A stretch of 64,000 nucleotides of DNA from Patescibacteria group bacterium (GTDB lineage Bacteria; Patescibacteriota; Patescibacteriia; UBA9934): positions 13,215 to 77,214 of the forward strand of contig JBAYHI010000003.1 in NCBI GenBank assembly GCA_041666205.1. Direction: 5' to 3'. Every line of letters begins with the position of its first letter. Position 1 is the stretch's first letter. The position numbers were made by a program, and so were the translations under genes. The notes under the pieces are model-generated. The model saw only the letters and a list, made by a program, of their open reading frames with translations. It had not been told where the DNA came from and made no database searches. Shown here piece after piece: positions 27,728-61,189 of this stretch.

Positions 27728-27854
27728 TTATTCTCCAATCGCTCTTTTAAGAGCGGAAGGTTGTTTCAAGAACCCAGAAATCTACTCCAAAATTGTCGTT
27801 TTGTCAATAATTCCTCCACAAGGAAAAATCCCAAAAAACAGGTATAATGGCCCC

Positions 27855-28967
27855 ATGCGAATAGCAATGATTGGTCAAAAAGGAATCGAGCTTGGAAGCC
27901 GTGGGGGCGGGGTTGAGGTACATGTTGCACAAATTTCCTCTCGCCTCGTGAAAAAAGGTCACGACGTGACGATTTTTTGTCGCGCAAAATATAGTCCGAA
28001 AAAGCCGGGGGAATATCAAGGTGTTCATCTTCGGTATTTACCAACGATTTATACCAAACGCCTTGAGGCGATTGTCCACACGTTTTTTTCAACGCTTGCG
28101 GTTGTTGCAGGCTCGTTTGATGTTGTGCATTATCACGGTGTTGGACCGTCTACACTCGCATTTATTCCACGCATCTTTCGACCGCGCATGACCGTGGTTG
28201 TGACCTTCCATGCACGCGATATGCTCAATCGAAAATGGGGCTGGGGCGCACGACGACTTCTGGCATTTGCCGAGCGCACAGCGATTTGGTTTTCGCATTA
28301 TTGCATTGCTGTCTCGCATGATTTGCAGGTCTATTGTCGCGACGTGCTGCACCGCGAAGTTGTCTACATTCCAAATGGCGCCACGATTCAGGAAGAAACG
28401 GGCACAAATGAACTTGAAAAATTCGATCTCAGAGCACGAGAATATATTCTGACGGTTGGGCGGTTGGTTCCGGCAAAGGGCCTTCATTATCTTGTGGAGG
28501 CATTTCGTGGAATCGAAACGCAGCAACAACTCGTGATTGTTGGCGCGCCGAGTTATTCCGACGCCTATTTGGAATCGCTGTACGCCTTGGCCGAAGGCGA
28601 TGAGCGTATTCATTTTTTGGGATTTCAGACTGGCGAAACACTCCGCCAATTATTTGGCCATGCCTATTTGTATGTCCAACCATCCGAAGTTGAAGGGCTC
28701 CCACTCGTCGTGCTTGAAGCGATGAGCTTTGGCATTCCTCCGCTGGTTTCTGACATCGCCCCAAATCTCGAGGCAATCCACAATGGCGGATTTACATTTG
28801 AAACACAAAACGCCAATGATTTGCGCAAGCACCTGGTGGAGTTATTGGACCATCCTGATTTGGTTGCAGCGAAAAGTGCGCAAGCAAAAGAAATTATTCA
28901 AACCAAGTTTAACTGGGATGTGATTGCTGATCATACCGAGGCGATTTATATTTCGGCGCGGCACTAA
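27855..28967 (+). CDS. Glycosyltransferase family 4
   Basis: 'MRIAMIGQKG...GGGVEVHV' N-terminus and C-terminal 'EGLPLVVLEAMSFGIPPLVSD' (E-x7-E). TATAAT at 27843..27848 lies 6 nt before the ATG (leaderless-type). Confidence 0.85.
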   Translation: MRIAMIGQKGIELGSRGGGVEVHVAQISSRLVKKGHDVTIFCRAKYSPKKPGEYQGVHLRYLPTIYTKRLEAIVHTFFSTLAVVAGSFDVVHYHGVGPSTLAFIPRIFRPRMTVVVTFHARDMLNRKWGWGARRLLAFAERTAIWFSHYCIAVSHDLQVYCRDVLHREVVYIPNGATIQEETGTNELEKFDLRAREYILTVGRLVPAKGLHYLVEAFRGIETQQQLVIVGAPSYSDAYLESLYALAEGDERIHFLGFQTGETLRQLFGHAYLYVQPSEVEGLPLVVLEAMSFGIPPLVSDIAPNLEAIHNGGFTFETQNANDLRKHLVELLDHPDLVAAKSAQAKEIIQTKFNWDVIADHTEAIYISARH

Positions 28968-28968
28968 T

Positions 28969-29940
28969 ATGCAAGAGGGTGCTTCACTACTCGCAGTCCA
29001 CCATCAGAGCGTGCAAGACGCCTTGGCACTTTTTGGTGTCTCGCGTGCGGGGCTCTGCGAAGAAGATGTGCTTGTGCGCGGCGCTTCATTGGCACGACCA
29101 ACGTCATGCACGGTTGCCATTGTGCGACGGCAACAACATTTGCGACAGGTGGATGCTGAGGGGTTGGTTGAAGGAGATATTGTGCTCTTGCGCCCGGGTT
29201 TTTCTGTTTTTGCCGATGGGAGGCTCCTCCTTGCATCAGATCTCCACATGAATGAGCTCCAGATATTTGGAAATACTGATGTGCATAAGCAATTGGCTGC
29301 GCTTTTGCCAGAAACACTTCCCATCGATGCAACCAATATGGTATTTGCTGGTTCACGCGTCCTCTCCGGAACAGGCGAATACGTTGTAACCGCACCATCG
29401 GATAAATCGCTTTGCAGAAAATTCAATCTTTGTGATGTAGCATGCGAACCCGTCACAGACGTCTGCTTGGAGTTCGTGGAGTCCTCGGTGTCTGATCGCG
29501 AGCTTTTGTGTTTGCATGCAACCTTGGGCGATGAACTCATCTTAAATCCGCATACTGGCGTGTTCGAATCCATTGGCGGGCGTTATGAAAAAGCGATCGC
29601 CTTGTTTTTGCAACAGCATCCCATGGAAATCGGGTTGCGCGTTTTTCATCATCCCATGGATGCGGAACGTGGTGTTGCTATCGCAGTCGTAGAAATGGTT
29701 GGTGGGCGTACGGTTTTGCTTGCGGGGGAAGCCGATGTCCTGTTGCCGCTGCTTGATATCACCGATAAAGAACGCTCTCAAATCACAAGAAAACTTCAGG
29801 ATGCGCGAAAAAAACACATGCTCACCCTTCTTCTTGCAGAAACGCCAGGGAGTGAGCAGGCACAAACAGTTGATGCACTTGGCGATCTCTCGTATGTCGG
29901 GCTGGTGTATTTTTCGGCGATAAAAAACAAGAACTCCTAA
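28969..29940 (+). CDS. Soluble P-type-ATPase-like protein (Cation_ATPase_N + actuator + partial nucleotide-binding domain) lacking TM helices and the DKTGT phosphorylation motif
   Basis: 'SVQDALALFGVSRAGLCEEDV' N-domain, then 'VEGDIVLLRPGFSVFADGRLLLASDLHMNELQIFGNTD' (A-domain; TGES degenerate), then 'GRTVLLAGEADVLL...HMLTLLLAE' (N-domain-like). No hydrophobic segments. Confidence 0.6.
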   Translation: MQEGASLLAVHHQSVQDALALFGVSRAGLCEEDVLVRGASLARPTSCTVAIVRRQQHLRQVDAEGLVEGDIVLLRPGFSVFADGRLLLASDLHMNELQIFGNTDVHKQLAALLPETLPIDATNMVFAGSRVLSGTGEYVVTAPSDKSLCRKFNLCDVACEPVTDVCLEFVESSVSDRELLCLHATLGDELILNPHTGVFESIGGRYEKAIALFLQQHPMEIGLRVFHHPMDAERGVAIAVVEMVGGRTVLLAGEADVLLPLLDITDKERSQITRKLQDARKKHMLTLLLAETPGSEQAQTVDALGDLSYVGLVYFSAIKNKNS

Positions 29941-29966
29941 ACCTTGGTATACTAGTAAAAAATCGT

Positions 29967-31424: not shown

Positions 31425-31426
31425 CC

Positions 31427-35540: not shown

Positions 35541-35570
35541 ACCACCCCGTCTGCGGGGTGTTTTGTGTTT
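35541..35570 (+). terminator. Rho-independent terminator 'accaccccgtctgcggggtgttttgtgttt'
   Basis: GC stem plus T-tract. Near-identical copy at 36426..36454. Confidence 0.75.
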
Positions 35571-35586
35571 CTATGGCCCCGGCTCT

Positions 35587-35613
35587 TGACAGGAATGTTA
35601 GAATGATATAACA
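35587..35613 (+). promoter_or_regulatory. Sigma70-like promoter TTGACA-N15-TATAAC
   Basis: Consensus -35 at 35587..35592 with a -10-like hexamer upstream of the 35622 gene. Confidence 0.5.
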
Positions 35614-35621
35614 TCAAAACA

Positions 35622-36215
35622 ATGTTACTTAATTCTAACTTTATGACAGAAAAAGAATTTCGAGTTTACAATCTGGTTGCGACGATGATTATTGGGTTTG
35701 TGAGCTCATTGCTTTTCCAGAACGAGCTATATTGGTTATTCGGGCTCGTATGGATTCTTCTTGGTCTTGCCGTTTGGTTTGTACAACGCCGTGTAAAGGG
35801 AGTTGTAGTCGATGAACGAGATCGCGAACTTGAAGCTCGTGCGGCTCGATATGCCATGTGGAGTTATTCAACGATCGGCATGATTGTCGTCCTGGTATTG
35901 CTGTCGTTCCAGTCTGTTAATCCCATTTTTGAAACGATTGCGATGACTCTCCTTTGCACTTTGTTTGGGTTCGTTCTGGTTTTTTTGTGTATTTTTCTTT
36001 TCCTAAAGCAAACGACCGCATCAATTGTTGGCGCATGCGTCATTATTGGTCTTTCGTTGTTCATGCTGATGGCATTCTCCGGCATATTCTATACGGAACT
36101 CATGGGTGGCCAAGATATGTGGGGGTGCGAAGATGGTGCGTGGGTGTTGATTCGAGACGGAAAAATCGATGTCCCGATGCCGACCGAAACGTGCGCGCAA
36201 CGGATGCCGATGTAA
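35622..36215 (+). CDS. Membrane protein (4 TM, DUF2178-like), hypothetical
   Basis: Hydrophobic ORF paired with a downstream XRE-family regulator. Confidence 0.55.
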
Positions 36216-36425: not shown

Positions 36426-36459
36426 ACCACCCCATCCGCGGGGTGTTTTGTGTTATAAT
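36426..36459 (+). terminator. Terminator 'accaccccatccgcggggtgttttgtgtt' fused to an extended -10 (TGtTATAAT, 36451..36459) for ftsE
   Basis: TATAAT ends 6 nt before the ftsE ATG at 36466, which suggests a leaderless transcript. Confidence 0.6.
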
Positions 36460-36465
36460 ATCCCC

Positions 36466-37149
36466 ATGATTGAACTGCGCAATGTCACAAAGCATTACGC
36501 GCCTCATACAAATGCTCTCAAGAGCATTTCTTTGCATATCCGGCCCGGGGAATTTGTGTCCGTGGTCGGGCAAAGCGGTTCGGGGAAAACCACACTCGCA
36601 AAACTGCTTTTTGCCGAGGAACGTCCCACGAAGGGGAAAATTATTATTGGCGATTGGGACATTTCCGCCATTCATCAACACGAGATTCCGATTTTGCGTC
36701 GTCAAATTGGGGTGGTATTCCAAGATTACAAGCTCCTACAGCGCAAAACGATTTTCGAAAATATTGCATTCGCACTAGAAGTTGCCGGCGCACCACAAAA
36801 AACGATCCGTGATATCGTGCCCAACGTGTTGAAAATCGTAGGGCTTGGCGATAAAAAAGATCGCTATCCACGCCAACTATCCGGTGGCGAGCAACAACGT
36901 GTTTCCATTGCGCGATCGCTTGTGCATCGCCCAAAAATTTTGGTTGCCGATGAGCCTACGGGAAATCTTGATGCCATCCATTCCCATGAAATTATCGAAC
37001 TCTTGAAGCGCATCAATGAATATGGCACCACGGTCGTGCTTGTTACACACGATCGTGAAATTGTGAACGCTCTCAAAAAACGGGTGATCACGCTTCAGGA
37101 TGGCGAAATCGCGTCTGATATTGAACACGGTAAATACATTCTTTCATGA
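36466..37149 (+). CDS. ftsE: Cell division ATP-binding protein FtsE
   Basis: Walker A 'GQSGSGKTT', ABC signature '[13 protein letters not shown]', Walker B '[12 protein letters not shown]'. Followed by ftsX with an ATGA overlap. Confidence 0.9.
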
Positions 37150-39576: not shown

Positions 39577-39614
39577 TTTTTGACCGCAATATCCCTTAGG
39601 GGTAAGCTCTGCCT

Positions 39615-40655
39615 ATGAAGGTTTATTGCCATCTCTTGACGTGGAATGATCACCGGTATTTGCCGGAGTTATTTGCGTCTTTTGATGCGCAAACGTATCG
39701 TGATTTTTCGGTTCGTGTGCTCGATAATGGGAGTAATGATAAGACCGTGGAATACCTTCAAACGCACGTTCCGCAAACGCTTGTGGGGCATAATGTCCGA
39801 AATCTCGGATTTGCCGAAGGTCATAATCAGCTTGTGCGGTTTACGCTTGAACACGAAATTGGTTCAGAGATCGATCCATGTATTTTGATCATGAACTCTG
39901 ACATGATCTTGCACAAAGATGCCATAAAAAATATGGTTGAAGCGCTCGATGCACATCCAGAATGGAGCGCGGTTCAACCAAAAGTTTATCGCGCGTTCGG
40001 CGAACATACAGGCGATGAGTCGCTCAAGGAAACCGTTCTTTCGGATATTTTAGATACGACTGGTCTTCGCGTGCAGAAGGGCTGGCGCATGACTGATCGG
40101 GGTGCTGGCGAAATGGATAGCGGGCAATACGATTCTCACATTGAACTATTCGGGCCCGCAGGCGCAATTTTCATGATTCGCCTTTCTGCGCTCAAGGAAT
40201 TATTTGTGAATGCGGAATTATTTGATCGTGAATTTTTTGCGTATCGAGAAGATTGCGATTTGGCTTGGCGTATGGCAGGCAAACGTCTGAAAACCGGTTT
40301 TGTGCCAAGTGCCACGCTTCATCACTATCGAGGGATGTATGGCGCAGAGCGCTTGTCGTTTTGGAAGCGTTTGCGCAATCGCCAAGGGCAACGTCCATTT
40401 TTTGCAGCACTTTCCACACGAAATCAACTCTTTCTGCTCCTCAAGAACTTATCGTTTGGAGATTTGTGTTTGGCACTACCATGGATTGTATGGAACGAAG
40501 GCATTCGCGTTGGCTATGGATTTCTCTTTGAACCAGAAACGCGACGATGTCTTTTGGGCATGTGGAAGGCGGTGGGGTCTATGATGGCAAAACGAAAAAC
40601 GATCCTTGCAACACGTATTGCCACCGGAGGGGAATTACGATCTTATGTCGTGTGA
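39615..40655 (+). CDS. Glycosyltransferase family 2
   Basis: 'SVRVLDNGSNDKT' and 'FAYREDCDLAWR' are GT2_A motifs. Confidence 0.8.
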   Translation: MKVYCHLLTWNDHRYLPELFASFDAQTYRDFSVRVLDNGSNDKTVEYLQTHVPQTLVGHNVRNLGFAEGHNQLVRFTLEHEIGSEIDPCILIMNSDMILHKDAIKNMVEALDAHPEWSAVQPKVYRAFGEHTGDESLKETVLSDILDTTGLRVQKGWRMTDRGAGEMDSGQYDSHIELFGPAGAIFMIRLSALKELFVNAELFDREFFAYREDCDLAWRMAGKRLKTGFVPSATLHHYRGMYGAERLSFWKRLRNRQGQRPFFAALSTRNQLFLLLKNLSFGDLCLALPWIVWNEGIRVGYGFLFEPETRRCLLGMWKAVGSMMAKRKTILATRIATGGELRSYVV

Positions 40656-41514: not shown

Positions 41515-43744
41515 TTTTCCCGATAAGTTTCAGGCGATTTTTGGTGTTCCAAAAACGTCTCCGTCCGCACCTGCATCGCCGCCTGTTTATACCGATCGAC
41601 TTCAAGAAGCACTCACGCAGACATTCCCGGAAGATACGCAACCGGTCATTGTTCCCGTTGAACCCTCTCGAGCGGTGGCGGAAGAAATTCCTCCGGTGGT
41701 GTCGGGTGATTTTTTGATTACTCCGCCCGAAGTACCGGGCGTTTTTGCGCCTCCGTTTCAAACCGAGAGCGCGCCCATTTTTGGCATTGAGCATACCCTG
41801 CACGGCGAAGATGAAATATTCGCACCCGCGCCGCTGCCACGACGAAAAACGCATTGGCTGCGGAAATTGGCGTTTGCCTGTTTTATTGCGTTTTTGGGAA
41901 TGAATGTAGCTGGGGTGGCCCTATTGGGAAGTGGGTTTTATGCGGCCAAGCAAGATGTTGACCGCATGTTTGAGTCGGTGAGCGCTTTGCAAATTGACGA
42001 TGCAGTTGAGGATCTTGCGGCAGTACGCGATGATTTTGCCCGTGCACGCAATGGCGCATATCTTTTGCAATGGGCGCGCCCAATCCCTTGGGTGGGTGAT
42101 CAAATCGAGGGCGCTGGTACGCTCCTTGTTGTTGCCGTGCAAACGCTCGATGTGCTCGAGCAAGCCGGCACCTTAGCCCAAGACCTCTATCACATCGTGA
42201 CGGACGCAGAAATTATTGCCGACGATGGCACCATTGTGACCGACATTACGTTTGAGGATATTCCAGATCGCACAAAAGAAGAGTTATTTCGAACACTTGC
42301 GTTGGCATCGCCTGATTTGTACGAACTGCGATCCAAAGTCCATTTAGCGCAAACGCGCATGACGTCGCTTGATCGGCTTTCTGTGCATCCACTTCTTGCA
42401 AGCGGATCAGAAGAATTGAATTCGATTTTGGTGCAGTTGTCGCAAGGCATTGATTTTTTGGTGCCATTTGCTTCCACAGTTGGGGAATTGGCAGGCGTCG
42501 GAGAAGATCGCCAGTGGCTCGTTTTATTCCTCAACAATACGGAGCTTCGTCCTGGCGGAGGTTTTATTGGCGTCTATGGGCTCCTCACGATGCGCGATGG
42601 GTCAATCGTGAATATGGTGACCGATGATAGTTACGCCATCGACAAACTGGTAGAGGGCAATCCTGCGTACTCGGTAACGCCACCAAAACCATTTCAGGAA
42701 TACATGATTTTGAAAAATTGGTACTTCCGCGACAGTAATTGGTCGCCGGATTTTCCGTCCTCATCTGAAAATGTGGTTCGCATGATGCAAAATGAGTTTA
42801 AGGTTGCAGGCCAACCATCTCCGGCAATCGACGGCGTGATTGGATTTACTCCGGATTTGGCAGAAGATATGCTTGGGATTATTGGCCCTGTGACAGTGGA
42901 TGGGTTTACATTCACGCACGACAATGTAACCGCCCAGCTTGAGGAATTGGTGGAATTTTATTATGCGGGGATTGGGGTGCCAAAAGAAGAGCGAAAGGAA
43001 ATCGTTGGGGATTTAACAGATGCAGTTTTGGCAAAGGTATTGGCGTCAGACTTGGACGTCTGGCAAGAAATACTTGTGATGATTGAAACAAAATTCCGTG
43101 AAAAGCACATTGCGCTTTATTCATTCGATGAGAAAACTCAAACGGCGTTTGATGATTTTGGTTGGGCAGGCTCTGTGGATTCAGGGGTTGGGGACGACAA
43201 ACTAATGCTTGTAGACGCAAATATTGCGGCCTTAAAAACCGATTTAGTGGTTGATCGAAAAATCGATTACGCCATCACAAAAGAAGGAAGTGATTATGAA
43301 GGTCATGCGACGGTTACGTATACCAATACCGGAACCTATACAAAAACCACGGGGATGTATCGCACGTTTATGCGTCTTTATGTTCCAAAAGGAAGCGAAT
43401 TTTTATCCTACGATGGCGATGTCTTTGGGATGGAAATTGAAGAAGACCTTGGGCTGTTAAGTATTGGCGGATATATTGAGGTAAAACCCGGGCAAACCGC
43501 TTCCGTCACTTACCATTATCGTTTGCCAGAATCTGTGAACGAAGCGGTGCAAAACGGCGTCTATCAATTAGCAGTTTGGAAACAAATGGGATCAAAAAAT
43601 CACGCGTTGACGCTTGACCTTGATTTTGGTAAGAACATACGTACAGCTCTGCCTGCAGAAGAGAAAGAAAACTGGGGAAATACCCAGTATGAAATCACTA
43701 CAACCATCCCGGAAAATCTTCTGTTCACAGTAGAGTTCAATTAA
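41468..43744 (+). CDS. DUF4012-domain protein with N-terminal Pro-rich region and TM anchor (cell-envelope glycan-associated)
   Basis: 'LFLNNTELRPGGGFIGVYGLLTMRDG' is the DUF4012 hallmark. Start uncertain (41468 or 41489). Confidence 0.65.
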   Translation: MEEPINPPMPPQNDPDFPDKFQAIFGVPKTSPSAPASPPVYTDRLQEALTQTFPEDTQPVIVPVEPSRAVAEEIPPVVSGDFLITPPEVPGVFAPPFQTESAPIFGIEHTLHGEDEIFAPAPLPRRKTHWLRKLAFACFIAFLGMNVAGVALLGSGFYAAKQDVDRMFESVSALQIDDAVEDLAAVRDDFARARNGAYLLQWARPIPWVGDQIEGAGTLLVVAVQTLDVLEQAGTLAQDLYHIVTDAEIIADDGTIVTDITFEDIPDRTKEELFRTLALASPDLYELRSKVHLAQTRMTSLDRLSVHPLLASGSEELNSILVQLSQGIDFLVPFASTVGELAGVGEDRQWLVLFLNNTELRPGGGFIGVYGLLTMRDGSIVNMVTDDSYAIDKLVEGNPAYSVTPPKPFQEYMILKNWYFRDSNWSPDFPSSSENVVRMMQNEFKVAGQPSPAIDGVIGFTPDLAEDMLGIIGPVTVDGFTFTHDNVTAQLEELVEFYYAGIGVPKEERKEIVGDLTDAVLAKVLASDLDVWQEILVMIETKFREKHIALYSFDEKTQTAFDDFGWAGSVDSGVGDDKLMLVDANIAALKTDLVVDRKIDYAITKEGSDYEGHATVTYTNTGTYTKTTGMYRTFMRLYVPKGSEFLSYDGDVFGMEIEEDLGLLSIGGYIEVKPGQTASVTYHYRLPESVNEAVQNGVYQLAVWKQMGSKNHALTLDLDFGKNIRTALPAEEKENWGNTQYEITTTIPENLLFTVEFN

Positions 43745-43753
43745 ACTGGCCTC

Positions 43754-44758: not shown

Positions 44759-44759
44759 T

Positions 44760-45884
44760 ATGAAAACATACGGGATCGATGTGAATGCTTTGACCCGGGC
44801 GCGTAAAACTGGAACAGAGCGCTATGTTTTCGAGCTTTTAAAAGAAATGATAAAAACACCGCTTCAAAATGAAGAGCGGGTTGTTTTGTATTCAAGCGCG
44901 CTAATCCCAGAGCTTGGCACGCTCCCAAATGGATGGATCCTCAAGATTCTCGATTGGAAGCTCAAAAAAGCGTGGACTCACGCTCGACTTAGCTGGGAAC
45001 TTCTTACACGAACACCAGATGTATTTTTTAGTCCCGCGCATGAGATTCCGCTTTTTCACCGACGAACAAAATTTGTATCCACCGTGCATGATGTTGCATT
45101 TCGGATTGTGCCTGAGGTTTATTCCAAGAAGAGCGTGAAGCGGCAGGAATGGGCGGTTGCTCGTGCACTCAAGCTCGACCAGAAAATCATCACGATTTCT
45201 GAAACGTCCAAAAACGATTTGGTGAATCTGTATCATGTGGCACCAGAGCGTATTGCCATCACGCCTCTGGCCGTGCATCCGGAAGCATTTGCAACGGTCG
45301 AGGCCGATAAACAAAACGTTTTGGATAAATATCGCCTCAATGCCGGTCTTTATTTTGTAACGGTTGGGCGCGTTGAGAAAAAGAAAAATATTCCGTTTCT
45401 TTTGAGCACATTTGAAGCGTTTAAGCGTGATCGTGGCATTGGCGACCCATATCAACTGGTGCTTGCCGGCACATTTGGGGAAGATGCAAAGGAAATTCAA
45501 GCACAAATCGAAAAATTAGTATGCAAAGATGTTGTGCGCGTTTTGGGATATGTTCCCGACGCAGAATTGCCAGGGCTTCTGGCTGGTGCCGTCGCTTACG
45601 TTTTTCCAACACGTTACGAAGGATTTGGCATTCCAGCACTCGAGGCAATGGCTTCGCGCATTCCACTTATCGCGTCCGATATTCCGGCGCTTCGTGAAGT
45701 TGCGGGGGATGCAGCCCTTTTTGCAGGAGTTGAGGATGCTGGGGCGTGGATTGAAGCGATGCAAAAAATTGTCGATAATGAATCGCTTCGCGCGGATTTG
45801 GTACTAAAGGGTGCACAGCGTTTGCATGACTTTTCTTGGGTAGAGACGGCAAAAAAGACGTGGGAGGTGTTGCGAAGTGTGTAG
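44760..45884 (+). CDS. Glycosyltransferase family 4
   Basis: C-terminal 'EGFGIPALEAMASRIPLIASD' E-x7-E motif. ATG at 44760, 2 nt after the mreB stop. Confidence 0.8.
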   Translation: MKTYGIDVNALTRARKTGTERYVFELLKEMIKTPLQNEERVVLYSSALIPELGTLPNGWILKILDWKLKKAWTHARLSWELLTRTPDVFFSPAHEIPLFHRRTKFVSTVHDVAFRIVPEVYSKKSVKRQEWAVARALKLDQKIITISETSKNDLVNLYHVAPERIAITPLAVHPEAFATVEADKQNVLDKYRLNAGLYFVTVGRVEKKKNIPFLLSTFEAFKRDRGIGDPYQLVLAGTFGEDAKEIQAQIEKLVCKDVVRVLGYVPDAELPGLLAGAVAYVFPTRYEGFGIPALEAMASRIPLIASDIPALREVAGDAALFAGVEDAGAWIEAMQKIVDNESLRADLVLKGAQRLHDFSWVETAKKTWEVLRSV

Positions 45885-46795: not shown

Positions 46796-47587
46796 CTAGA
46801 GGTCGAAGTGCGAGCGCAGTGGCGGTTCTCCTTCTTCGAGCTCCTCGGTTCTTTCATCAAACGCGCAACATCCATCGGGGCGTGGTCTTGTGCTTGTTGG
46901 GATTTCCGAGGGTGGAGTTTTCGGAGGCACGAATGTAGGAAAAGCCTGATGAATCACGGCAAGCGGGATCCCAGCGAGGTGCGCCCGCGTAGCTGCACCC
47001 GAGGCATCCACGATTCCGGCCGCAGATGGCTGCGTGGCACATACCTGCAGGAGAAAACGCCCTTGTTCGTATTCTTTCGCGTAGAGATAGAGTCGGACAC
47101 GTGTGACACTCGGGCCGAATGTGAGTGCCTCGTTACCTTCGCGGTTGTTGTATTGGATCGAGACACCGCCGGTACTTCCAGTCTTGATACCTTTTTTGGC
47201 ATCTACGGCATCCATCTCCGTGGCTGCACGTTTGAAGGCGTTGAAGACCTCGGTCATGAACCCAATGGAGACAGTTCTTCCGTCAATCCATCTAGGACCC
47301 GCAGGACCTGGTCGGGCTCCGAAGCACATGCAGGCCTTGGCAAATGCCAGTAGGGCCTTGTCACGTTCCTCGAAGAAGTGTCGTACCGTACGCCCTGGAT
47401 CTTGGTAAACCCGCGCGATTCTTCTCACCTTCCCTCCAATGGGCAATATTGTCTGGATCTCAAGATTGTTTTCGAAGTTCCAAGACTGTCGAGAATACTC
47501 AAATATTTGAAAAATTGCAAGAGTTAGCCAAACAAAAAATCCGCGTTCACGATTTTCATCATAAATGCGGATTCTTCCTCGAGACAT
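46796..47587 (-). CDS. Hypothetical protein in the high-GC island (263 aa)
   Basis: ATG at 47587 preceded by GAGGT with 9-nt spacing. Resemblance to a tyrosine-recombinase catalytic-domain layout (R...K...R...H, but no C-terminal Tyr) is weak and speculative. The opposite-strand ORF has antisense-like composition. Confidence 0.45.
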   Translation of the reverse strand: MSRGRIRIYDENRERGFFVWLTLAIFQIFEYSRQSWNFENNLEIQTILPIGGKVRRIARVYQDPGRTVRHFFEERDKALLAFAKACMCFGARPGPAGPRWIDGRTVSIGFMTEVFNAFKRAATEMDAVDAKKGIKTGSTGGVSIQYNNREGNEALTFGPSVTRVRLYLYAKEYEQGRFLLQVCATQPSAAGIVDASGAATRAHLAGIPLAVIHQAFPTFVPPKTPPSEIPTSTRPRPDGCCAFDERTEELEEGEPPLRSHFDL

Positions 47588-47631
47588 GCAGTGCATACCT
47601 CAAGGACGTTTGGAACGGCTCGAGTCGAGCG

Positions 47632-48096
47632 CTAGTTCCAGTCCCAGCCGTGTTCTTCCTCGGTCATTTCCGAGAGCTCACTGATATGTCGGTTACAGCG
47701 ATGGCACTGACCGTCGCAGGTCGACTTATCGCGGTCGGACGGAACTACGAACACGAGCGTTCCGCGCAGGAACTGCTGGAAAAGACCCTTGAGGAACTGG
47801 TCGTTGTCCAGCTCGCAGGTTTCTCCGCGGTCCTTGGACTCTCTCGCGAACTTCAGCACGTCGCTGATCGAGATGTTGAGTTCCCTCATCGTGAAGACGA
47901 AGGCGTGGAACGTCTCGATGTTCATGATGGTGGACCCCAGCGAGGCCAGGGCGTCCAGCAGGTTGAACAAGCTTTGGAGCTGTTCGTCACTCGCCTCCGC
48001 GACGAAGTTGAGGCTCGTGGGTGGCTCTCGGAAGAACACTCTCATGACGCGTGCTGTATTCTGCTCAAGCTTCTTCCGCTTCTTCGGATCGAACAT
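47632..48096 (-). CDS. Hypothetical protein in the high-GC island (154 aa) with C-terminal CxxC...HxC cluster
   Basis: ATG at 48096 preceded by AAGGAGGG with 7-nt spacing. The longer ORF start at 48153 is TTG. Confidence 0.5.
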   Translation of the reverse strand: MFDPKKRKKLEQNTARVMRVFFREPPTSLNFVAEASDEQLQSLFNLLDALASLGSTIMNIETFHAFVFTMRELNISISDVLKFARESKDRGETCELDNDQFLKGLFQQFLRGTLVFVVPSDRDKSTCDGQCHRCNRHISELSEMTEEEHGWDWN

Positions 48097-49291
48097 AACC
48101 GCGCCCTCCTTGGCGTTTCTAGTTGGAGCTCTTAGTACCTCGAATTGCTTCAAGGTTCCAGTTGAGCCCCCTAGAACACATCAGGCGATGCGGGCTAGGG
48201 AGAAGCTCGGAGTTGGCACTTTCGCAGCTCAGGCGAGTCTATTTTGTGGAAACGAGCGACCAACCTCGGTTTTGACCTTACGTGGACGCTTCGTGCATCG
48301 GTCAGTTGCACAAAGCGTTTCTCTCATCGTCACCTCGTGGTGAATGGTGAAGTAGATGCGAGATGGGCAAAGCACGTTGCCCGACAGAGTGTGAGCCCGC
48401 CCAGTTCTGGAGAGGCGCGGCTCATTGTTTACGATGGCGTGCTCCATCGGCCGGTTTTCTTGTCTTCCGCCCCGGCGAGCGGTTCTATATGAGGCTCAAT
48501 TCTTGATACCCCCTCCGGCGTATATGCCGGTTCGAAGTTCTCCGTCAGTTGTGGCTTCAGGCGATTTTGAATCGATGTGCCCGATGCCGTGAGTGAACGG
48601 AGAACGGTCTTGAGGACTAGCGACGAGTGTCGTGAGTCCTGTGGGACCCCCGAGACATGTTTTCACGCATGCTCAGGGAAGGGGTGAGGATCTGCTTCCT
48701 CAGGGCTCACCACTGCTTGCGGGCCAGGCAAGACGTACGGACAGGTGACTTCCGGATGCTTTGGTTTCGAGCCTAACGACGGTCCAGCGTATTGTGCTGA
48801 AGAATTCTCCATATCGGGATCGCTTCGTACTTGAGTTTCACCTCGTTCCTGACTCCCCGACACAAGAATTCGCATCTCCGCCGATTATTCTAACCCTCTC
48901 GAAAGGGCTTTTTAGTATTCCCAGGCGAATAATGTGACCTTACGGCCCCCGGGACACCAATTTCAACAGACCATTTCTTCCTTAATTTTCGAGCATCTCA
49001 CGTGTGCTCGGTATCGTTTTCCGAGTCGACTCGGAAAAATGAACGATTCTATTTTTTTGATGTACACCTCCCGGTTCGTTGTTTCGGTTGCGTGCGTAGA
49101 GCTATTTACGCAAACCACGACGGGTACATTGTACCTCCGTGTAGCACGCGTCTTCCGCGTGTGCTACGTGTTTTGGTTCTACAGTTTTTTGCCGCTGTAG
49201 TCCGGCAAAAGGTTCTTAAGGTCTCGCGGTGAAGCGGGACCCAGTCGAACCCCCAACTCGCGGTTTCATGCGCGGTTAGGGAAGATAGGGG

Positions 49292-49621
49292 CTAGTAGTT
49301 GTGGCCGAACGTTCGGCATCGGCGCATGGCGCCTTTGGCCCCGCGCCGGCGCGGGGAGAACCCGCACGCGTGGACGCGTTCGTCCGTCTCCACCGGCACC
49401 ATGAGCGCGGTGCCACCGTCGTCGGTCGAGACAAACTCGCCGACCACGGTCCCGGGGTTGGGAATTCGCGTGGCCCGCAGGCCGGGACGGAACTTCCCGT
49501 CGCCCTCCGGGATCATTGGCGTGAAATCCGACGCCGAGGTTTCCCCCGGCGCTTCGTACGTGGCGTCGACGGGGTTGCCGTCGGCGTCCGTGGCCTCGAT
49601 TCGAACGGTCTTCGTGGGCAC
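49292..49621 (-). CDS. Hypothetical protein (109 aa, GC about 68%)
   Basis: GTG start preceded by AAGGAGGGG with 5-nt spacing. Both strands carry long ORFs here because of the high GC, so the call is tentative. Confidence 0.35.
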   Translation of the reverse strand: MPTKTVRIEATDADGNPVDATYEAPGETSASDFTPMIPEGDGKFRPGLRATRIPNPGTVVGEFVSTDDGGTALMVPVETDERVHACGFSPRRRGAKGAMRRCRTFGHNY

Positions 49622-49938
49622 GGGCCCCTCCTTCGATGGTTAAGTTATGCGCACAAGCCTGGAGGTGAGTGCTACGCCAAAGCGTAGCGGCTCAGCACTC
49701 GTCTGAGCTATAACAGTGATTGCCGAAGCAATATGCTATACGGCACCCGGGTGTGTGCAGAAAGCAAGCCGGAGCCTGGTTCAAGCACTTGGGTACCAAG
49801 TCATTGTGTTATCGTCAGACGGAAATCCGACGACCAAAAACCCTACCTCCTCTCCCCCAGAGTTATGCGCACAAGTTGTAAAGATCACATCGAAGTTCAC
49901 AAATTTTTTGAACTTTGACGTGACCGCGAGATTTTTGA

Positions 49939-50376
49939 TTACTCGCTGGTAAGTTGGAATCCATTGGCGCGAAATCGTTCGCGTATGGCTTCCAGTTGCT
50001 CCGGGTATTTCTCCTTCATTTCCCGAAGCAGACGCTGTGCCGCCTCGTTGTAGGTTTCCATCCGAACCGTGTCTGGCGGTTCGAGGTGGATCCACAAGGG
50101 GACGGAGTCGAGATAAAAAGCGATTTCCGATAGCAGATAAGCTCTGCTGTCATATCGGGCACGAATACTCATCTCCTTGATTGAAATGCCCTTAGCTTTT
50201 TCTGGAAGCTGAATGGCAACCAATATGAAGATGATTCCCCATGCTCGACGTTCGGACATTGAAGTTTGTTTGAAGATCTCGACAAGGGTATCGATCATGA
50301 GCTTCTGAACCACGGATGCCTGAGGTGACACGAGTTTTTCAAGCTTTGTGCCCTGCATCATAATGAAATGAAGCAT
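49939..50376 (-). CDS. Hypothetical protein (146 aa)
   Basis: First ATG of a longer ORF (49939..50766). The upstream extension runs through a REP hairpin cluster and starts at TTG, so it is trimmed. Confidence 0.45.
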   Translation of the reverse strand: MLHFIMMQGTKLEKLVSPQASVVQKLMIDTLVEIFKQTSMSERRAWGIIFILVAIQLPEKAKGISIKEMSIRARYDSRAYLLSEIAFYLDSVPLWIHLEPPDTVRMETYNEAAQRLLREMKEKYPEQLEAIRERFRANGFQLTSE

Positions 50377-50560
50377 TCTAGCACGAAGATTAAAATCGCG
50401 TCTTTTCTGGAACCTCTCGAGGTCCCGTTGTATACGTTTTTTTATATCCAAGACGGTTTTTTCCTTTGAAAAAGAACCGGGAATAATAGCAGAAAAATAG
50501 CGATTTGTCAAGCCATACCAAGGCAATTTTTGGCGAAAATTGCGTGAATTGTGACGAATT

Positions 50561-50986: not shown

Positions 50987-51007
50987 ATATGCTATAATCA
51001 CCTTGTT

Positions 51008-51904
51008 ATGACAGGGGATTTTAATGGCATTATTGGCCACCAGGCGCAAATTGAGTATTTGCGCAAAATTATTGCTGGCGAAAATGTGGCTCATGCCTAT
51101 TTATTCTCTGGCGCAGAGCGACTGGGGAAACGCACCATTGCTCGTGAATTTGCATCCATCATGCTCGGGATTGAGGAAAACGCCCTTGATACGCACCCCA
51201 ATTTCTATTTCGTGGATTATCCACTCGACGAAAAGACAGGCGAACCAAAACCCCACATCGATATCGATTCAATCCGTGATGCGCGAGAACGCATGCAACT
51301 TTCAACGTTTGACGGTGGGCGAAAAATCCTTCTCATTGATCACGCGGACAGCATGACGCTTGGCGCGCAGAATGCACTCTTGAAAACGCTCGAAGAACCA
51401 AGTGGCGATGCACTCATCATTTTGGTTGCCTGCATGCCCAAAATTCTTTTGCCAACGATTGTGTCTCGATCTGTTCACATTCGATTTGCTCCAGTTGCGT
51501 CGAAAATTATTTTGCAGTCGCTTGGCGACAAAGCACTTGCACTCAAAGAACTCGTCGAATCATTTGCCTATGGTCGTCCGGGAATTGCGCTGGAATTTTT
51601 AAACGATGAGCGTCGAGAGGAGATCGAATTGCAACGCAAGGATGCAAAAGCATTTTTTCGAGCGCCCCTTGCAAAACGATTTGGCATCATTGCAAGTCTT
51701 ACAAAGAAAAAAGAACGCAATGCCGTGCAGGAAGCGCTAAAAACCTGGCGCATGCAACTTCATGAAGATTTGGCTGAATCTCTTGGCACGCCAAGTGCAC
51801 TTCGCGTCGCAATTGCACTCAATGCGCTCGAAGAAGCCGATGAGTCGATTCGTCGCAACGGCAATGTCCCCCTTGCTTTAGAATATTTCGCAATTCATTT
51901 ATGA
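51008..51904 (+). CDS. holB: DNA polymerase III subunit delta-prime
   Basis: 'IIGHQAQIEYLRKII..NVAHAYLFSGAERLGKRTIAREFA', 'ILLIDHADSMTLGAQNALLKTLEEP' and 'SRS' sensor. AAA+ clamp-loader motifs lacking a full P-loop Lys-Thr, typical of delta-prime. Confidence 0.8.
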   Translation: MTGDFNGIIGHQAQIEYLRKIIAGENVAHAYLFSGAERLGKRTIAREFASIMLGIEENALDTHPNFYFVDYPLDEKTGEPKPHIDIDSIRDARERMQLSTFDGGRKILLIDHADSMTLGAQNALLKTLEEPSGDALIILVACMPKILLPTIVSRSVHIRFAPVASKIILQSLGDKALALKELVESFAYGRPGIALEFLNDERREEIELQRKDAKAFFRAPLAKRFGIIASLTKKKERNAVQEALKTWRMQLHEDLAESLGTPSALRVAIALNALEEADESIRRNGNVPLALEYFAIHL

Positions 51905-53013: not shown

Positions 53014-53052
53014 TTGACGTGAATCATCGCCATCTGTAACATACTATTCACT

Positions 53053-53595
53053 ATGAATTATTCCGTAGAAATTGCTCCGCTTTTGCAAAAGAATGTGGAG
53101 CATCTCCAGAAAGAATTAGGCACCCTTCGCACGGGCCGATCGTCCCCCGCACTTGTGGAGGATTTATCGGTTGAAGCATATGGTTCGCGCCAGCCCCTCA
53201 AGGCCTTGGCGAGTATTTCCACGCCCGACGCAAAAACAGTTCAAATTGAACCGTGGGACGCGAGCATGGTGAAAGCAATCGAAGTTGCGATTATGCAATC
53301 GTCCATTAATATTCCCCCAAACGTTGATGGAAAAATCATCCGCTTATTCATGCCCATGATGACCGAAGAAACGCGTCAGAAAATGGTGAAGGTCATGAAA
53401 GAAAAAATTGAAGAAGCGCGTGTTTCTGTACGAAAAGTACGCGAGGAATTCAAGAAAAAAATCGAAGCCGATGAATCCTTGAGCGAAGACATGACTCACG
53501 CCGAGCTCGAAACCCTTGATAAGAAAATCAAAGAAGTGAATGCAACGATCGACGACATTGGTAAGCGCAAAGAAGAAGAAATCATGAAAGTTTAA
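53053..53595 (+). CDS. frr: Ribosome recycling factor
   Basis: Full-length RRF-like: 'LRTGRSSPALVEDLSVEAYGSRQPLKALASISTPDAKTVQIEPWD'. Confidence 0.93.
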   Translation: MNYSVEIAPLLQKNVEHLQKELGTLRTGRSSPALVEDLSVEAYGSRQPLKALASISTPDAKTVQIEPWDASMVKAIEVAIMQSSINIPPNVDGKIIRLFMPMMTEETRQKMVKVMKEKIEEARVSVRKVREEFKKKIEADESLSEDMTHAELETLDKKIKEVNATIDDIGKRKEEEIMKV

Positions 53596-58027: not shown

Positions 58028-58188
58028 AGGGATTGTTTGAATGGGGGAAGTGTACGTAATCGCGGCAGTTTTGTCAATTCCCGCAGGGGCTTGGATTGAC
58101 AAATCGCCATTTTTTTGATAGTTTTTTCGGTTCCTCGAGTGAGGACAACAGGTCATTCCCACTAGATTTTTCTCCGCGGAGGTTTGAA

Positions 58189-59256
58189 ATGCAGTCCTAC
58201 ATCCAGTGCGTGCCCGGGAACCACAACCGGTGCGAGGCGCAGGGGCACGGGAAGCGTCTTATCCGGGATGGAACGTGTTCGATTGGTCGGGCCTGGGCGT
58301 TGCGCGCCCTGCCCTGCGCCGGGTGTGAGATGCTGGTGCCCGCGCACCTCGGAAAGCGCGTGAATCCGGCGTTCGTGGTTGCGATCGCGGGGGTCGGGAA
58401 CATCAAGGTCGCGCCCGGAGCATTCATGCTCTACGCGGCCGTCACCGTCGACCCCGAGGCGCGCTTGTGCGACGAGTGCGCGGAAAAGCTCGCGAGCGCT
58501 GTGCAGAACGGCTCGGGGAAGCCCGGGTTCGTTCATCTCGGTTCGCAGGTCGTCCCGCTTCTCATGAGCCCCACGACTGCGCAGACCGAACTTGCGCGCT
58601 GTGAGGAGGCGCGGGCCCTGGAGCGCGCCGAGCGCGTCCAGAAGATCGTGGCGCTCGTCGAGCGAATTCGCGCGGGATCTCAGGTCGCATTCGCGCGCAA
58701 GATGCGCGAGGGCGGTGAGCTTTGGACCGAATGCACGACGCACCGCAACACGCCCGACGGCACGTGCTTTGACGATGAATCCGCTCACTACGGCTACGCC
58801 AACTGGCACGAGATGCCGTCGATTCGCGCCGACAACAAGGTCTTCGGATTCTGCCCGACTTGCGCCAAGGAAGCGAAGGGCGCCGGCGTGGAGTTCAACG
58901 GCATGATGGCCGCGCTCGTCGCGCAGGTGCAGAATTTGCCCTACACGAATCCGAGCGATCGGGGGCGGAGTGGCAACACTGCGCTTGGTCACATCACGAC
59001 CGTGGACGAAGCTTCGCGTGAGATTGGGGCGCGTCTCACGCTTGCTCAGAAGTCCGATGGTCAGCGGGACTGGGTCGCACGGAATTTCGAGTTCGGTGCG
59101 ACCGGGATGGGGCGGAAGCATCGCGTGACGCGCAAGCCCGTACAGCTCTCGCCCGAAGAAATCGAGCGTCGTCGGGCCGAGCGCGCGAAGCGCAAGGCCG
59201 ATGAGAAGAGACAGCAGAAGAAGGGGGGAGGCGGCAACAAGAAGAAGGGCCGCTAG
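58189..59256 (+). CDS. Hypothetical high-GC (about 66%) protein with multiple CxxC zinc-ribbon-like motifs and a Lys/Arg-rich C-terminal tail
   Basis: ATG at 58189 preceded by GGAGGT with 5-nt spacing. Composition differs sharply from flanking genes. The opposite-strand 369-aa ORF looks antisense (R/L/A-rich). Confidence 0.55.
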   Translation: MQSYIQCVPGNHNRCEAQGHGKRLIRDGTCSIGRAWALRALPCAGCEMLVPAHLGKRVNPAFVVAIAGVGNIKVAPGAFMLYAAVTVDPEARLCDECAEKLASAVQNGSGKPGFVHLGSQVVPLLMSPTTAQTELARCEEARALERAERVQKIVALVERIRAGSQVAFARKMREGGELWTECTTHRNTPDGTCFDDESAHYGYANWHEMPSIRADNKVFGFCPTCAKEAKGAGVEFNGMMAALVAQVQNLPYTNPSDRGRSGNTALGHITTVDEASREIGARLTLAQKSDGQRDWVARNFEFGATGMGRKHRVTRKPVQLSPEEIERRRAERAKRKADEKRQQKKGGGGNKKKGR

Positions 59257-59362
59257 TCCCTCGTATCCCACCTCACGCGAGGTGGGCTCAAGTCCGCAGC
59301 AACGTCACCGGTGGTGGCCTTGTCTGCGGGCTTTTTGGTTTGTTGTGAACAGATCAAACGCG

Positions 59363-59368
59363 TATAAT
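59363..59368 (+). promoter_or_regulatory. -10 box TATAAT 6 nt upstream of the ATG at 59375 (leaderless-type)
   Basis: Same arrangement as at 27843, 36454 and 50993. Confidence 0.5.
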
Positions 59369-59374
59369 GCGAGT

Positions 59375-61189
59375 ATGCACGTACATATTTGGCGATGGTT
59401 TTTTTGGTCTGGCATCCTCTTTATTGTCTTGGGAGGCGTGTTTGCGATTGGTCTTACGCTTGGGCTTATTTGGAAAAATGAGTTTGAGCTTCCGGTGCGC
59501 GAAGTAGGACCCCTGTATTCCTCGGGATTGCAAACGAAAGATTTTTTTGATGGTGCGTATGCAGCTGCGGAGCCAGGTGATTCGGTTTCGGTTGTGAGCG
59601 CAGTATCAGCGCATCATCTTTTGGTTGCAAAAGAGATTGCTTCGCTTTTTGAAACGATTGGTTCGGGGAGTGTCAAAACCGTCATTGTGGTGAGCCCGAA
59701 TCATTTTGATGCTGGTGTTCACCCCGCGCAGGTTTCATTCGGAAATTGGGAAACGCCGTATGGCATGGTGGAATCTTCCACGAAAGCGCGTGTGCTTGCA
59801 AATCGTGGTGGGATCGTTTGGAATGAAGAAAAAGCATTTGAACAAGAGCATGGTATTGGAGCACTCACGCCATTTGTCGCGCATTCATTTCCAAACGCGA
59901 AAATCATTCCGCTCGTGATTGATGATTCGCTCACCGCGGATGAAGCAAAGGTTGTTGCGGGCGAACTCTACGACGTTGCGCCCGACGCCATTCTGATTGC
60001 GTCCTCTGACATGTCGCACTATTTGCCAAGTTTGGCGTCGGATTACCACGACGAGGTGACGGAGAATTGCTTGGCGCGTGGAATTGCGTGTTTAGAAAAT
60101 TTGAATTTGGAAGTGGATACAAATGCCGTGCTTCAGGTTTTGGGTGAGTGGAATCGTTTGCAGGGCACGCAAGTGTGGACGCAAACCTATCACGGCAATT
60201 CGCTTGCCATGGGCATTGGCGACGCAGCAGAAGAAAATACAAGCCATATTCTGGGGTACTTTACAAAAGGTGCGCCGGTGACGTCACCCTCGGCTTCCAT
60301 TCATTTCGTTGGTGACATTATGCTTGATCGTGGTGTGCGAAAAGCAATCGATGCAGCCGGTGGCGACCCGAATTTTCCCTGGCAGCACGTGATGCGCTTT
60401 TTGCAAGGATCAGATTTGCGCGTTGGCAACCTGGAAGGAACCGTGAACGAACAACAAAGCACCTATACCTACGATCCGCCATTTCGATTTGTCTTTTCGC
60501 CAAGCTATGTGGAAGCAATGAAACCATTCATCGACGTGGTATCGCTTGCCAATAATCACGTCTGGGATGTGGGCAGTGCTGGGGAAACTGAAACGCATAC
60601 CTGGCTGGATTCCATGGGCATTCCGTGGTTTGCTTCGTATAAATCGCCAGTGCCACGCTACGACCAAGATATTAACGGAATCCCGATTACGCTCATTGGC
60701 TATCATTCATTCCAGCCCGACGAGGATTTACTGCTGGAGACGATTGCAACCGCACAAAGTGATGGGCGATTTATCATCGTCATGCCACATTGGGGCGTTG
60801 AATATGAACATCAACCGCAAACCGCACAACGGGCACTGGCTCAGAAAATGATCAACGCTGGCGCTGACCTTATTATGGCCGGTCACGCACATGTGCCAGA
60901 GGGGATTGAAGTCATCGACGGCGTGCCAGTTCTTTACTCGCTTGGGAATTTCGTTTTTGATCAACAGATTCCGGAAACCTGGTCCGCACTCACGGCTGGA
61001 GTGATTATCACGGATGAAAAAATCGAAATTAACCTCCTGCCAGTGGACGTCAGTTTGAAAGCGCCAAAGCCGATGGAGGGCGATAAAGCCACCGCACTCC
61101 TCAAACACCTTGCGGAGTATTCCGACGACGTGCTAAAAGAACAAATAATTAATGGCAAACTAATTTTTGACCGATATGAAACAAACTAA
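59375..61189 (+). CDS. Fusion protein: N-terminal TM + Memo-like (AmmeMemoRadiSam system protein B family) domain + C-terminal CapA/PGA_cap metallophosphatase-like domain
   Basis: Memo-like 'VVSPNHF...HGIG...SSDMSHY'. CapA-like 'SLANNHVWDVG...GHAHVPEGIEVIDGVPVLYSLGNFVFDQ'. Confidence 0.6.
   Translation: MHVHIWRWFFWSGILFIVLGGVFAIGLTLGLIWKNEFELPVREVGPLYSSGLQTKDFFDGAYAAAEPGDSVSVVSAVSAHHLLVAKEIASLFETIGSGSVKTVIVVSPNHFDAGVHPAQVSFGNWETPYGMVESSTKARVLANRGGIVWNEEKAFEQEHGIGALTPFVAHSFPNAKIIPLVIDDSLTADEAKVVAGELYDVAPDAILIASSDMSHYLPSLASDYHDEVTENCLARGIACLENLNLEVDTNAVLQVLGEWNRLQGTQVWTQTYHGNSLAMGIGDAAEENTSHILGYFTKGAPVTSPSASIHFVGDIMLDRGVRKAIDAAGGDPNFPWQHVMRFLQGSDLRVGNLEGTVNEQQSTYTYDPPFRFVFSPSYVEAMKPFIDVVSLANNHVWDVGSAGETETHTWLDSMGIPWFASYKSPVPRYDQDINGIPITLIGYHSFQPDEDLLLETIATAQSDGRFIIVMPHWGVEYEHQPQTAQRALAQKMINAGADLIMAGHAHVPEGIEVIDGVPVLYSLGNFVFDQQIPETWSALTAGVIITDEKIEINLLPVDVSLKAPKPMEGDKATALLKHLAEYSDDVLKEQIINGKLIFDRYETN

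Follow-up and report, generated by a model that had tools for sequence, protein, structure and literature searches.

How does a ribosome find its start codons on messengers that offer it no Shine-Dalgarno (SD) sequence? The question is raised by a stretch of 64,000 nucleotides (nt) of a Patescibacteria chromosome (positions 13,215 to 77,214 of contig JBAYHI010000003.1, assembly GCA_041666205.1), the whole of which we refer to as the window. A first-pass annotation of the window had proposed two coexisting regimes of translation initiation, namely, leaderless backbone genes with a TATAAT box 6 to 9 nt before the ATG and canonical SD sites on genes of high GC content. We found that the core genes indeed lack SD sites and that atypical genes are led by GGAGG, but the leaderless pattern fits no more than about 12 of the 49 backbone genes. 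A scheme of three classes of start, comprising leaderless operon heads, SD-free coupled operon-internal genes, and SD-led accessory genes, is the account that we consider probable.

The gene set curated for this analysis contained 56 genes, of which 49 were backbone genes (20 operon heads and 29 operon-internal genes) and 7 were atypical, with starts assigned from the first ATG, the position of Pfam domains, the N termini of orthologs, and the gene calls of other assemblies. An SD core was defined as GGAG, GAGG, or AGGA at a spacing of 3 to 12 nt, and 2,246 non-start ATGs served as the control. With these settings, an SD core was present at none of the 49 backbone starts versus all 7 atypical starts (Fisher p = 4e-9), and it was present at 6.4% of the control ATGs. 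The SD-less set included rfbB, rfbC, frr, murD, and HIT, which had been named before as lacking GGAGG, and the tally across the window placed SD motifs upstream of no backbone gene rather than of most. The window sequence is also present in independent Logan, JGI, and ENA assemblies, and the flanks taken from other assemblies (L083, just outside the window, and L084) added 13 further backbone-like genes, all without an SD site.

At the operon heads, a promoter element stands close to the start codon. The exact hexamer TATAAT occurs 8 times on the plus strand and 19 times on both strands, and four occurrences lie 6 to 9 nt before Pfam-supported gene starts, where 0.03 would be expected; it is the commonest hexamer at this spacing. 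Direct reading placed these four boxes, as reported before, six nucleotides from the ATG (N6) at 27843, 36454, and 59363 and nine (N9) at 50993. A −10-like hexamer (match of at least 5/6, with A2 and T6 required, at a spacing of 5 to 9) was found at 7/20 heads (p = 1.5e-8 versus 1.6% in controls) and at 0/29 internal genes; among the heads, the spacing was N6 in four cases and N9 in three, N6 being the commonest. When relaxed boxes (TATAAC, TAGACT, CATACT, and TAAGCT) were accepted, about 12 of the 20 heads fit the pattern. The motifs and their spacing, the gene classes to which they are restricted, and the conservation described below were observed directly. The candidate sites are the following.

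2870..2884, minus strand: CATAAT-N6-ATG2872, 691-amino-acid (aa) protein, divergent from ATG2904
11851..11870, plus strand: TGtTAGACT-N8-ATG11868, S41 peptidase
13572..13613, plus strand: TTGACG-18-TATCAT-N9 (or CATATT-N6)-ATG13611, rplI
15823..15843, plus strand: TGtTATACT-N9-ATG15841, giant gene encoding 2,007 aa, following a hairpin at 15802-15815
22408..22424, plus strand: TATAAC-N8-ATG22422, 131-aa protein heading the mraY-ftsW-murG operon
27843..27857, plus strand: TATAAT-N6-ATG27855, GT4 glycosyltransferase (27855..28967), with the Glyco_transf_4 domain 18 residues past the ATG
35586..35624, plus strand: TTGACA, then TGaTATAAC-N9 (or TAACAT-N7)-ATG35622, DUF2178
36428..36468, plus strand: hairpin CACCCC-N6-GGGGTG and T-tract, then TGtTATAAT-N6-ATG36466 (box at 36454), ftsE
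39603..39617, plus strand: weak candidate TAAGCT-N6-ATG39615, GT2, with a consensus match of only 3/6
43742..43756, plus strand: weak candidate TAAACT-N6-ATG43754, mreB, with the box overlapping the upstream stop codon
50990..51010, plus strand: TGcTATAAT-N9-ATG51008 (box at 50993, seventh base after the box a G), holB (51008..51904)
53014..53055, plus strand: TTGACG-17-TAACAT-N10 (or CATACT-N7)-ATG53053, frr
59363..59377, plus strand: TATAAT-N6-ATG59375, Memo-CapA fusion (59375..61189), 42 nt past a hairpin at 59316-59332

Several properties of these sites are typical of promoters. The extended −10 element (TGn) precedes 7/16 boxes versus 1/16 by chance, and a good −35 element is present at rplI, DUF2178, and frr. 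The seventh base after the box (the eighth for frr), as read by eye and not computed, is a purine in 13/13 candidates, and in the N6 class this base is the A of the ATG itself. All leaderless candidates start with ATG and carry no SD core. Terminator-like hairpins are enriched in the window (37 to 43 versus 24 to 28 in shuffled sequences), and at ftsE, holB, and the giant gene one lies 20 to 25 nt before the ATG, so that no space is left there for a longer leader; at Memo-CapA the distance is 42 nt. A two-hexamer promoter scan of the window was not enriched over shuffles; because promoters in this DNA depend on the −10 or extended −10 element, that scan is uninformative in aggregate. Taken together, the TATAAT-N6-9-ATG sites would behave as promoters fused to start codons.

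Individual sites required some correction. The giant gene does have a −10-like box, but it reads TATACT and lies at 15826-15831, not at 15818 as the first-pass annotation had it; it abuts ATG15832 and is N9 from ATG15841, the likelier start. At GT4, the start called from coding potential falls at 27867 instead of 27855, and at ftsE, ATG36466 was also chosen by gene callers in two other assemblies. The weak mreB box showed no clear conservation in relatives. The string TATAATnnCCCCATG is common to the starts behind 27843 and 36454, as had been observed before; as a repeated module it was rejected, since the similarity ends within 15 nt, and it was taken as a preference for a C-rich discriminator or as chance. 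Near-identical terminators, CACCCC-N6-GGGGTG-TTTTGTGTT, occur 885 nt apart at 35543-35569 and 36428-36454, and the second leads straight into the ftsE −10 box. Hairpins also abut starts of another kind: pyrG (14062-14093) starts 9 nt past a terminator-like hairpin, ATCGACCC-TGC-GGGGTCGAT, with neither a −10 box nor an SD site, and frr of the relatives L005 and L006 likewise starts 5 nt past a hairpin and T-tract.

The operon-internal genes, which make up 29 of the 49 backbone genes, carry neither an SD core nor a −10 box. The distance from the upstream stop codon to their ATG ranges from −56 to +13 nt, with 24/29 at +3 or less, and their junctions include six of the form stop-T-ATG and four ATGA overlaps, the latter bearing out the frequent stop/start overlaps noted before. 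A search for an alternative ribosome-binding site (RBS) upstream of internal genes by k-mer enrichment returned only stop-codon k-mers and no purine-rich motif. The junctions read as follows.

44756..44762, plus strand: stop-T-ATG junction TAATATG between mreB and GT4, with the same form at 5073-5079, 6538-6544, and 28965-28971
23860-23866 and 45882-45888: stop-T-ATG junctions TAGTATG
37146..37149, plus strand: ATGA stop/start overlap of ftsE and ftsX, with further overlaps at 7318, 33675, and 51901

The short gaps point to coupling by re-initiation, whereby translation of the downstream gene would probably depend on that of the upstream gene. A second feature, missed in the first-pass annotation, is a strong T at position −1, which is part of the start signal. 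It is present at 40/49 backbone starts (82%; heads 80%, internal genes 83%) versus only 14.5% of non-start ATGs; G never occurs at this position, and all six single-nucleotide stop/start spacers are T. At internal genes, this base fits a pairing of U(−1) with A37 of the initiator tRNA, by analogy with Escherichia coli, in which the pairing was shown experimentally (PMC10018350). At leaderless heads, it fits the preference of transcription starts for a pyrimidine at −1 and a purine at +1.

The window was assigned to the core chromosome of a member of the Patescibacteria, or Candidate Phyla Radiation (CPR), by genome match and gene content. Its GC content is about 48%, and nearly all genes lie on the plus strand. 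Pfam annotation yielded a gene set typical of the CPR, with wall and division genes (mraY, ftsW, murG, murD, murE/F, ftsE/X, mreB, and divIC), the rfbBCD genes of rhamnose synthesis, numerous glycosyltransferases, and housekeeping genes (rplI, rpmG, frr, proS, pyrG, tpiA, and holB); the 2,007-aa giant protein, numerous orphans, and three tRNAs complete the content. An Rfam search found no rRNA in the window, and a regular-expression search found no conserved 16S 3′-end motif among 83 sequences scanned. Among 185,579 species genomes, the closest is a Patescibacteria metagenome-assembled genome (MAG; L003), whose RRF is 80% identical and whose backbone DNA is about 70% identical and syntenic; it is followed by MAGs at 49 to 58% and then by Uhrbacteria, Peribacteria/Peregrinibacteria, and Saccharibacteria at 40 to 48%.

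Start architecture is kept across these relatives. L003 has TGtTATAAT-N9-ATG at holB, and in Saccharibacteria and other CPR loci, the box before this gene reads TAAAAT, TAAACT, or TATAGT and stands at N6-8; at the aligned Memo-CapA start, L003 has TGcTATACT-N6-GTG; and the TTGACG upstream of frr is kept in L003, L005, L006, L010, L012, and L013. The stop/start junctions of GT4b, trmB, proS, M16, tpiA, and TPR are all kept in L003, and the L084 flank contains two more TAATATG junctions. The flanks also supplied three more promoter-at-start cases (CATAAT-N5, TGcTAGAAT-N9, and TGaTACAAT-N9). In 70 ortholog-anchored starts from L003 to L014, T stood at −1 in 83% and G in 0%, and an SD core was present in 11%, near background. 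For 22 further CPR loci, we also computed a start-agnostic profile (−10-like box, spacer, and an ATG that opens an open reading frame [ORF] of 100 aa or more), and it peaked at N6-7 with counts of 21 and 22 versus a background of about 7. The corresponding profile of GGAGG or AGGAG peaked at N4-8 only in control loci from Firmicutes, Acidobacteria, Aquificae, and Helicobacter. Since the box profile peaks in this way and orthologs keep the architecture, the SD-free and leaderless regime seems to be widespread across the superphylum.

The SD-led genes stand apart from this background. A full GGAGG precedes all seven atypical genes at N4-11, six of them high-GC orphan ORFs (N4-8; GGAGG at 58178, 63142, and 63648 on the plus strand and at 49631, 48109, and 47437 on the minus strand) and the seventh an IS200-like transposase (N11). 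The claim that every gene of the high-GC blocks has GGAGG thus held for these six ORFs, with the reservation that 46796..47596 has an alternative start behind GAGGT-N9. The blocks occupy 46700-50900, 58030-59370, and 63000-64000 of the window and 13713-16370 of the L083 flank, with a GC content of 0.56 to 0.69. The SD-led genes, including a TTG-start gene of native composition, are as follows.

27018..27038, minus strand: GGAGG-N11-GTG27018, IS200-like transposase (Pfam Y1_Tnp), GC 0.45
47428..48113, minus strand: GGAGG-N8-ATG48096 (154 aa), and GGAGG-N4-GTG47428 or GAGGT-N9-ATG47587 (210 or 263 aa)
49621..49635, minus strand: AAGGAGGG-N5-GTG49621, 109-aa ORF, GC 0.69, directly 3′ of a conserved structured RNA
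50463..50511, minus strand: TTGACA-17-TGcTATTAT, a leader of about 20 nt, and AAGGA-N10-TTG50463, 174-aa protein with a canonical leadered promoter
58178..58191, plus strand: GGAGG-N6-ATG58189, 355-aa orphan, GC 0.65, GC at third codon positions (GC3) 0.81
63142..63660, plus strand: GGAGG-N5-ATG63152 (65 aa) and GGAGG-N5-ATG63658 (66 aa), both ORFs independently called in the ENA assembly

The transposase gene (26578-27099, minus strand) adjoins tRNA-Lys (27258-27333), with a palindromic hairpin at 27103-27122. The tie between SD sites and high GC held only in part: the high-GC ORFs have GGAGG, but so does the IS200-like gene, and the TTG-start gene (49939..50463; GC 0.48) is led by AAGGA here and by GGAGG-N4-TTG in L003. 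Since these two genes have SD sites, SD use does not simply follow GC content. The non-ATG starts GTG and TTG occurred only among SD-led genes in the curated window, as would be expected if SD-free initiation were stricter in requiring AUG; this restriction is a soft one because the curation preferred ATG.

Are these genes no more than foreign DNA? On this account, the high-GC ORFs were transferred recently from a high-GC, SD-using donor or its mobile elements, came with signals of their own, and may be expressed poorly or not at all, and the host has a single, SD-free regime. Their composition lends itself to such an origin, as four of the six ORFs have a GC3 of 0.68 to 0.85, and the remaining two of 0.52 and 0.55, versus about 0.5 in the backbone, and the GC pattern over codon positions (e.g., 0.65/0.50/0.81) matches that of genuine genes in a genome with about 62 to 65% GC. 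The ORFs matched no Pfam or PHROG family, a search of 5.8 billion proteins with the 355-aa ORF returned the query alone, one SD-led gene is a transposase, and the whole of the 3.9-kb high-GC block 1 lies between the arms of a 41-nt inverted repeat (46630-46670 and 50554-50594) that are 90% complementary. By composition and codon usage, the blocks are atypical in the manner of horizontal islands, but they are not absent from close relatives: both loci are occupied by high-GC ORFs in L003 and in another related genome, L004. In L003, a homologue of the 355-aa ORF, 31% identical, shares conserved cysteines with it and has an SD site of its own (GGAGG-N4-TTG), the SD site past the structured RNA is kept in three genomes though the ORFs behind it differ, and the TTG-start gene of the same cassette, native in composition, is SD-led as well. 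No integrase domain and no tRNA was found at the borders of the high-GC blocks, and the repeats there are inverted, not direct. Thus, the high-GC SD-led ORFs are not simple recent imports, and foreign origin alone is possible but rather unlikely as the full explanation. Across the three genomes, in which backbone DNA is about 70% identical, the ORFs at the same loci are unrelated or only 31% identical, and neither old nor recent horizontal transfer easily explains these shared loci.

Block 1 has further structure. The left arm of its repeat consists of the last nine trmB codons and a terminator hairpin, and an inverted copy of this sequence forms the right arm; at the same position, L003 has another inverted repeat, perfect and of 26 nt (5211-5236 and 7653-7678). 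These repeats suggest that the block is a cassette able to invert or move; a recombinase gene was not seen at it. Its minus-strand unit comprises the TTG-start 174-aa gene, the conserved structured RNA, and an SD-led ORF, all behind the TTGACA-17-TGcTATTAT promoter, which is identical in the window and L003. The RNA, of about 200 to 225 nt, is encoded on the minus strand at 49640-49865 in the window, at 6069-6293 in L003, and at 7798-7975 in L004. The window and L003 copies are about 80% identical, above the 70% or so of neighboring genes; the fold predicted for the RNA comprises 70 pairs and four branch points, with compensatory changes at 8 of the pairs, and the more distant L004 copy scores 37.7 bits against the model built in this analysis. 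In 3/3 genomes, the RNA is followed by an SD site and the start of a non-conserved high-GC ORF, and in L003 the site is AAGGAGGG-N4-ATG although the ORFs are unrelated. The 3′ strand of the closing helix reads CACCUCC; a doubtful further possibility is that it masks or exposes the downstream SD site, so that the RNA would be a riboregulator of an SD-dependent accessory module. No Rfam family matched the RNA, even at permissive thresholds, and a metagenome pattern scan for further copies gave 13 loci, all chance matches. It was rejected as a tmRNA (ARAGORN negative, and no tmRNA signature by eye), as SRP or RNase P RNA (no signature sequences by eye), and as 6S RNA, as its predicted fold is not the 6S rod.

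At the operon heads, the TATAAT-like boxes might not be promoters of leaderless messengers at all but AT-rich, SD-independent ribosome-loading elements on longer leaders, comparable to the non-SD RBS of Bacteroidota. Genomes of that type also lack SD sites (PMC6028130), and the upstream regions in the window are A-rich and G-poor at −12 to −7, internal genes included. A loading element, however, would not be expected to be confined to heads (7/20 versus 0/29 internal genes), to have the TGn extension typical of promoters, to follow TTGACA or TTGACG −35 elements in some cases, or to lie within 20 to 25 nt of the terminators at ftsE, holB, and the giant gene, where a longer leader has no room. 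In addition, the Bacteroidota control loci showed neither the N6-7 box peak nor an SD peak and had C, not T, at −1. We regard this explanation as very unlikely. An artefact of start-codon choice or a chimeric assembly is hardly credible, even though starts were curated by hand and long ORFs on both strands (58096..59256, plus, and 58162..59271, minus) divide the callers over strand, since start calls made without motifs yield the same key sites, the exact-TATAAT test requires no annotation, ortholog N termini agree, the backbone/high-GC junctions are identical in the Logan, ENA, and JGI assemblies, and L003 tblastx backs the plus frame of the 355-aa ORF.

The motif-free coding-potential caller picked 36466, 51008, 59375, 53053, 13611, and 22422 and likewise 43754, 5077, 6542, 23864, and 45886. 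Calls in public assemblies differed from ortholog-supported starts at GT4b (44727 versus 44760) and trmB (GTG45877 versus ATG45886), and in high-GC block 2 the antisense ORF (58162-59271) was called in one assembly.

Several observations weigh against the three-class scheme. Eight operon heads do not fit the leaderless pattern: pyrG, PEGA, and GIY-YIG have no box, and at the CDP-OH transferase, rfbC, murD, a 494-aa gene, and rpmG the box lies 12 to 24 nt upstream. These heads have short SD-less leaders; rpmG, for example, has a canonical TTGACA-17-TACACT promoter at N21 and a leader without an SD site. Borderline SD-like sites at long spacing precede GT2b (GGAGG-N14) and trmB (GGAGG-N18). Of three further high-GC ORFs in the L083 flank, one lacks an SD site, and the link between GC and SD is therefore a tendency and not a rule. 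The sample is small (56 genes), its starts were hand-curated with a preference for ATG, and those of the high-GC ORFs were partly chosen via GGAGG. The leaderless signal was weak when the 12 closest relatives were scored blind. Finally, automated start calling on 20-kb loci gave an SD share of only about 40% in the Firmicutes and Acidobacteria positive controls, so that group comparisons are noisy; for this reason, the start-agnostic profiles and ortholog-anchored starts were used.

On balance, we favor the three-class scheme. Native genes of this CPR chromosome would start translation without SD pairing. At about 60% of heads, a sigma-70-type −10 box, often TGnTATAAT after the terminator of the previous unit, ends 6 to 9 nt before the ATG, and polymerase would start on the A of the ATG where the spacing is N6, or 1 to 3 nt before it. 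We infer the transcription start positions, the leaderless state, and the mode of ribosome recruitment; the leaderless mRNA would presumably be bound through its 5′-terminal AUG. At internal genes, the terminating ribosome probably re-initiates at the overlapping or adjoining ATG, and the near-invariant U at −1 may assist through its capacity for pairing with A37 of the initiator tRNA. The SD-led accessory genes (high-GC orphans, the IS200-like transposase, and the RNA cassette) would be leadered and presumably use ordinary binding of the 30S subunit through the anti-SD sequence, whose intactness in this lineage we infer only from the conserved GGAGG sites. A bolder extension, which we put forward as doubtful, is that the clade dropped SD pairing for its whole core, where a 5′-terminal AUG or U-AUG re-initiation alone would set the start sites, and kept a still-functional anti-SD as a private channel for a few fast-evolving genes of foreign composition, at least one set of which sits in a cassette bracketed by inverted repeats and behind the structured RNA, an RNA not described before.

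These start rules matter in practice, as gene callers that lean on SD sites will misplace CPR starts; Prodigal-type calls depart from the ortholog-supported starts at GT4b and trmB and take the wrong strand in a high-GC block. A rule set in which a −10 box at N6-9 marks heads and stop-T-ATG marks internal genes, with T at −1 as a further signal, would describe how CPR start codons are found. It concerns the reduced CPR ribosome, in which bS21 is often absent and bS1 short, and would connect with the anti-SD loss reported for some Parcubacteria. If SD sites are restricted to accessory genes, the presence of GGAGG can serve as an easy marker of genes that are foreign or under special regulation.

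Leaderless and SD-independent initiation are known architectures, and what is unusual here is the mix of features and a lineage for which we found no published description; the literature searched contained no report of leaderless genes in the CPR. Many leaderless transcripts are found in GeneMarkS-2 group C (Actinobacteria and Deinococcus-Thermus, including Mycobacterium tuberculosis and Deinococcus deserti; PMC6028130, PMC3898074, PMC3160421), and as in that group, the window has a Pribnow box 6 to 8 nt before first-gene starts, these starts are SD-less, and SD sites occur elsewhere in the genome. The internal genes of group C, however, have an SD-type RBS, as opposed to 0/29 here, and the leadered rpmG is also without one; because its internal genes carry no RBS, the window fails a defining feature of the group. 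Moreover, SD sites in the window are confined to a few atypical genes, and Patescibacteria are not among the lineages described. With the SD-independent initiation of Bacteroidota and Cyanobacteria (group B of GeneMarkS-2; Nakagawa et al. 2017, PMC5397173), the window shares SD-less core genes, genome-wide there and window-wide here, and A-rich, G-poor upstream regions. In group B, by contrast, a non-SD motif precedes all genes and no promoter box stands at N6-7, whereas here a −10 box precedes heads only, most commonly at N6, and internal genes have none.

Within the same superphylum, Tsurumaki et al. (2022) reported reduced ribosomes in the CPR and the absence of the CCTCCT anti-SD motif from about half of Parcubacteria (PMC9297842), in a study that covered rRNA and ribosomal proteins, not mRNA start sites. 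In the present lineage, the conserved GGAGG sites argue for a working anti-SD. The internal genes resemble the coupling known in E. coli by termination-reinitiation and the U(−1)/A37 "quadruplet" pairing (PMC10018350), with ATGA and stop-N-ATG junctions and a U directly 5′ of the AUG. In E. coli, these are modest helpers beside the SD sequence; here, they are apparently the sole signals for about 60% of genes, with U(−1) at 82%.

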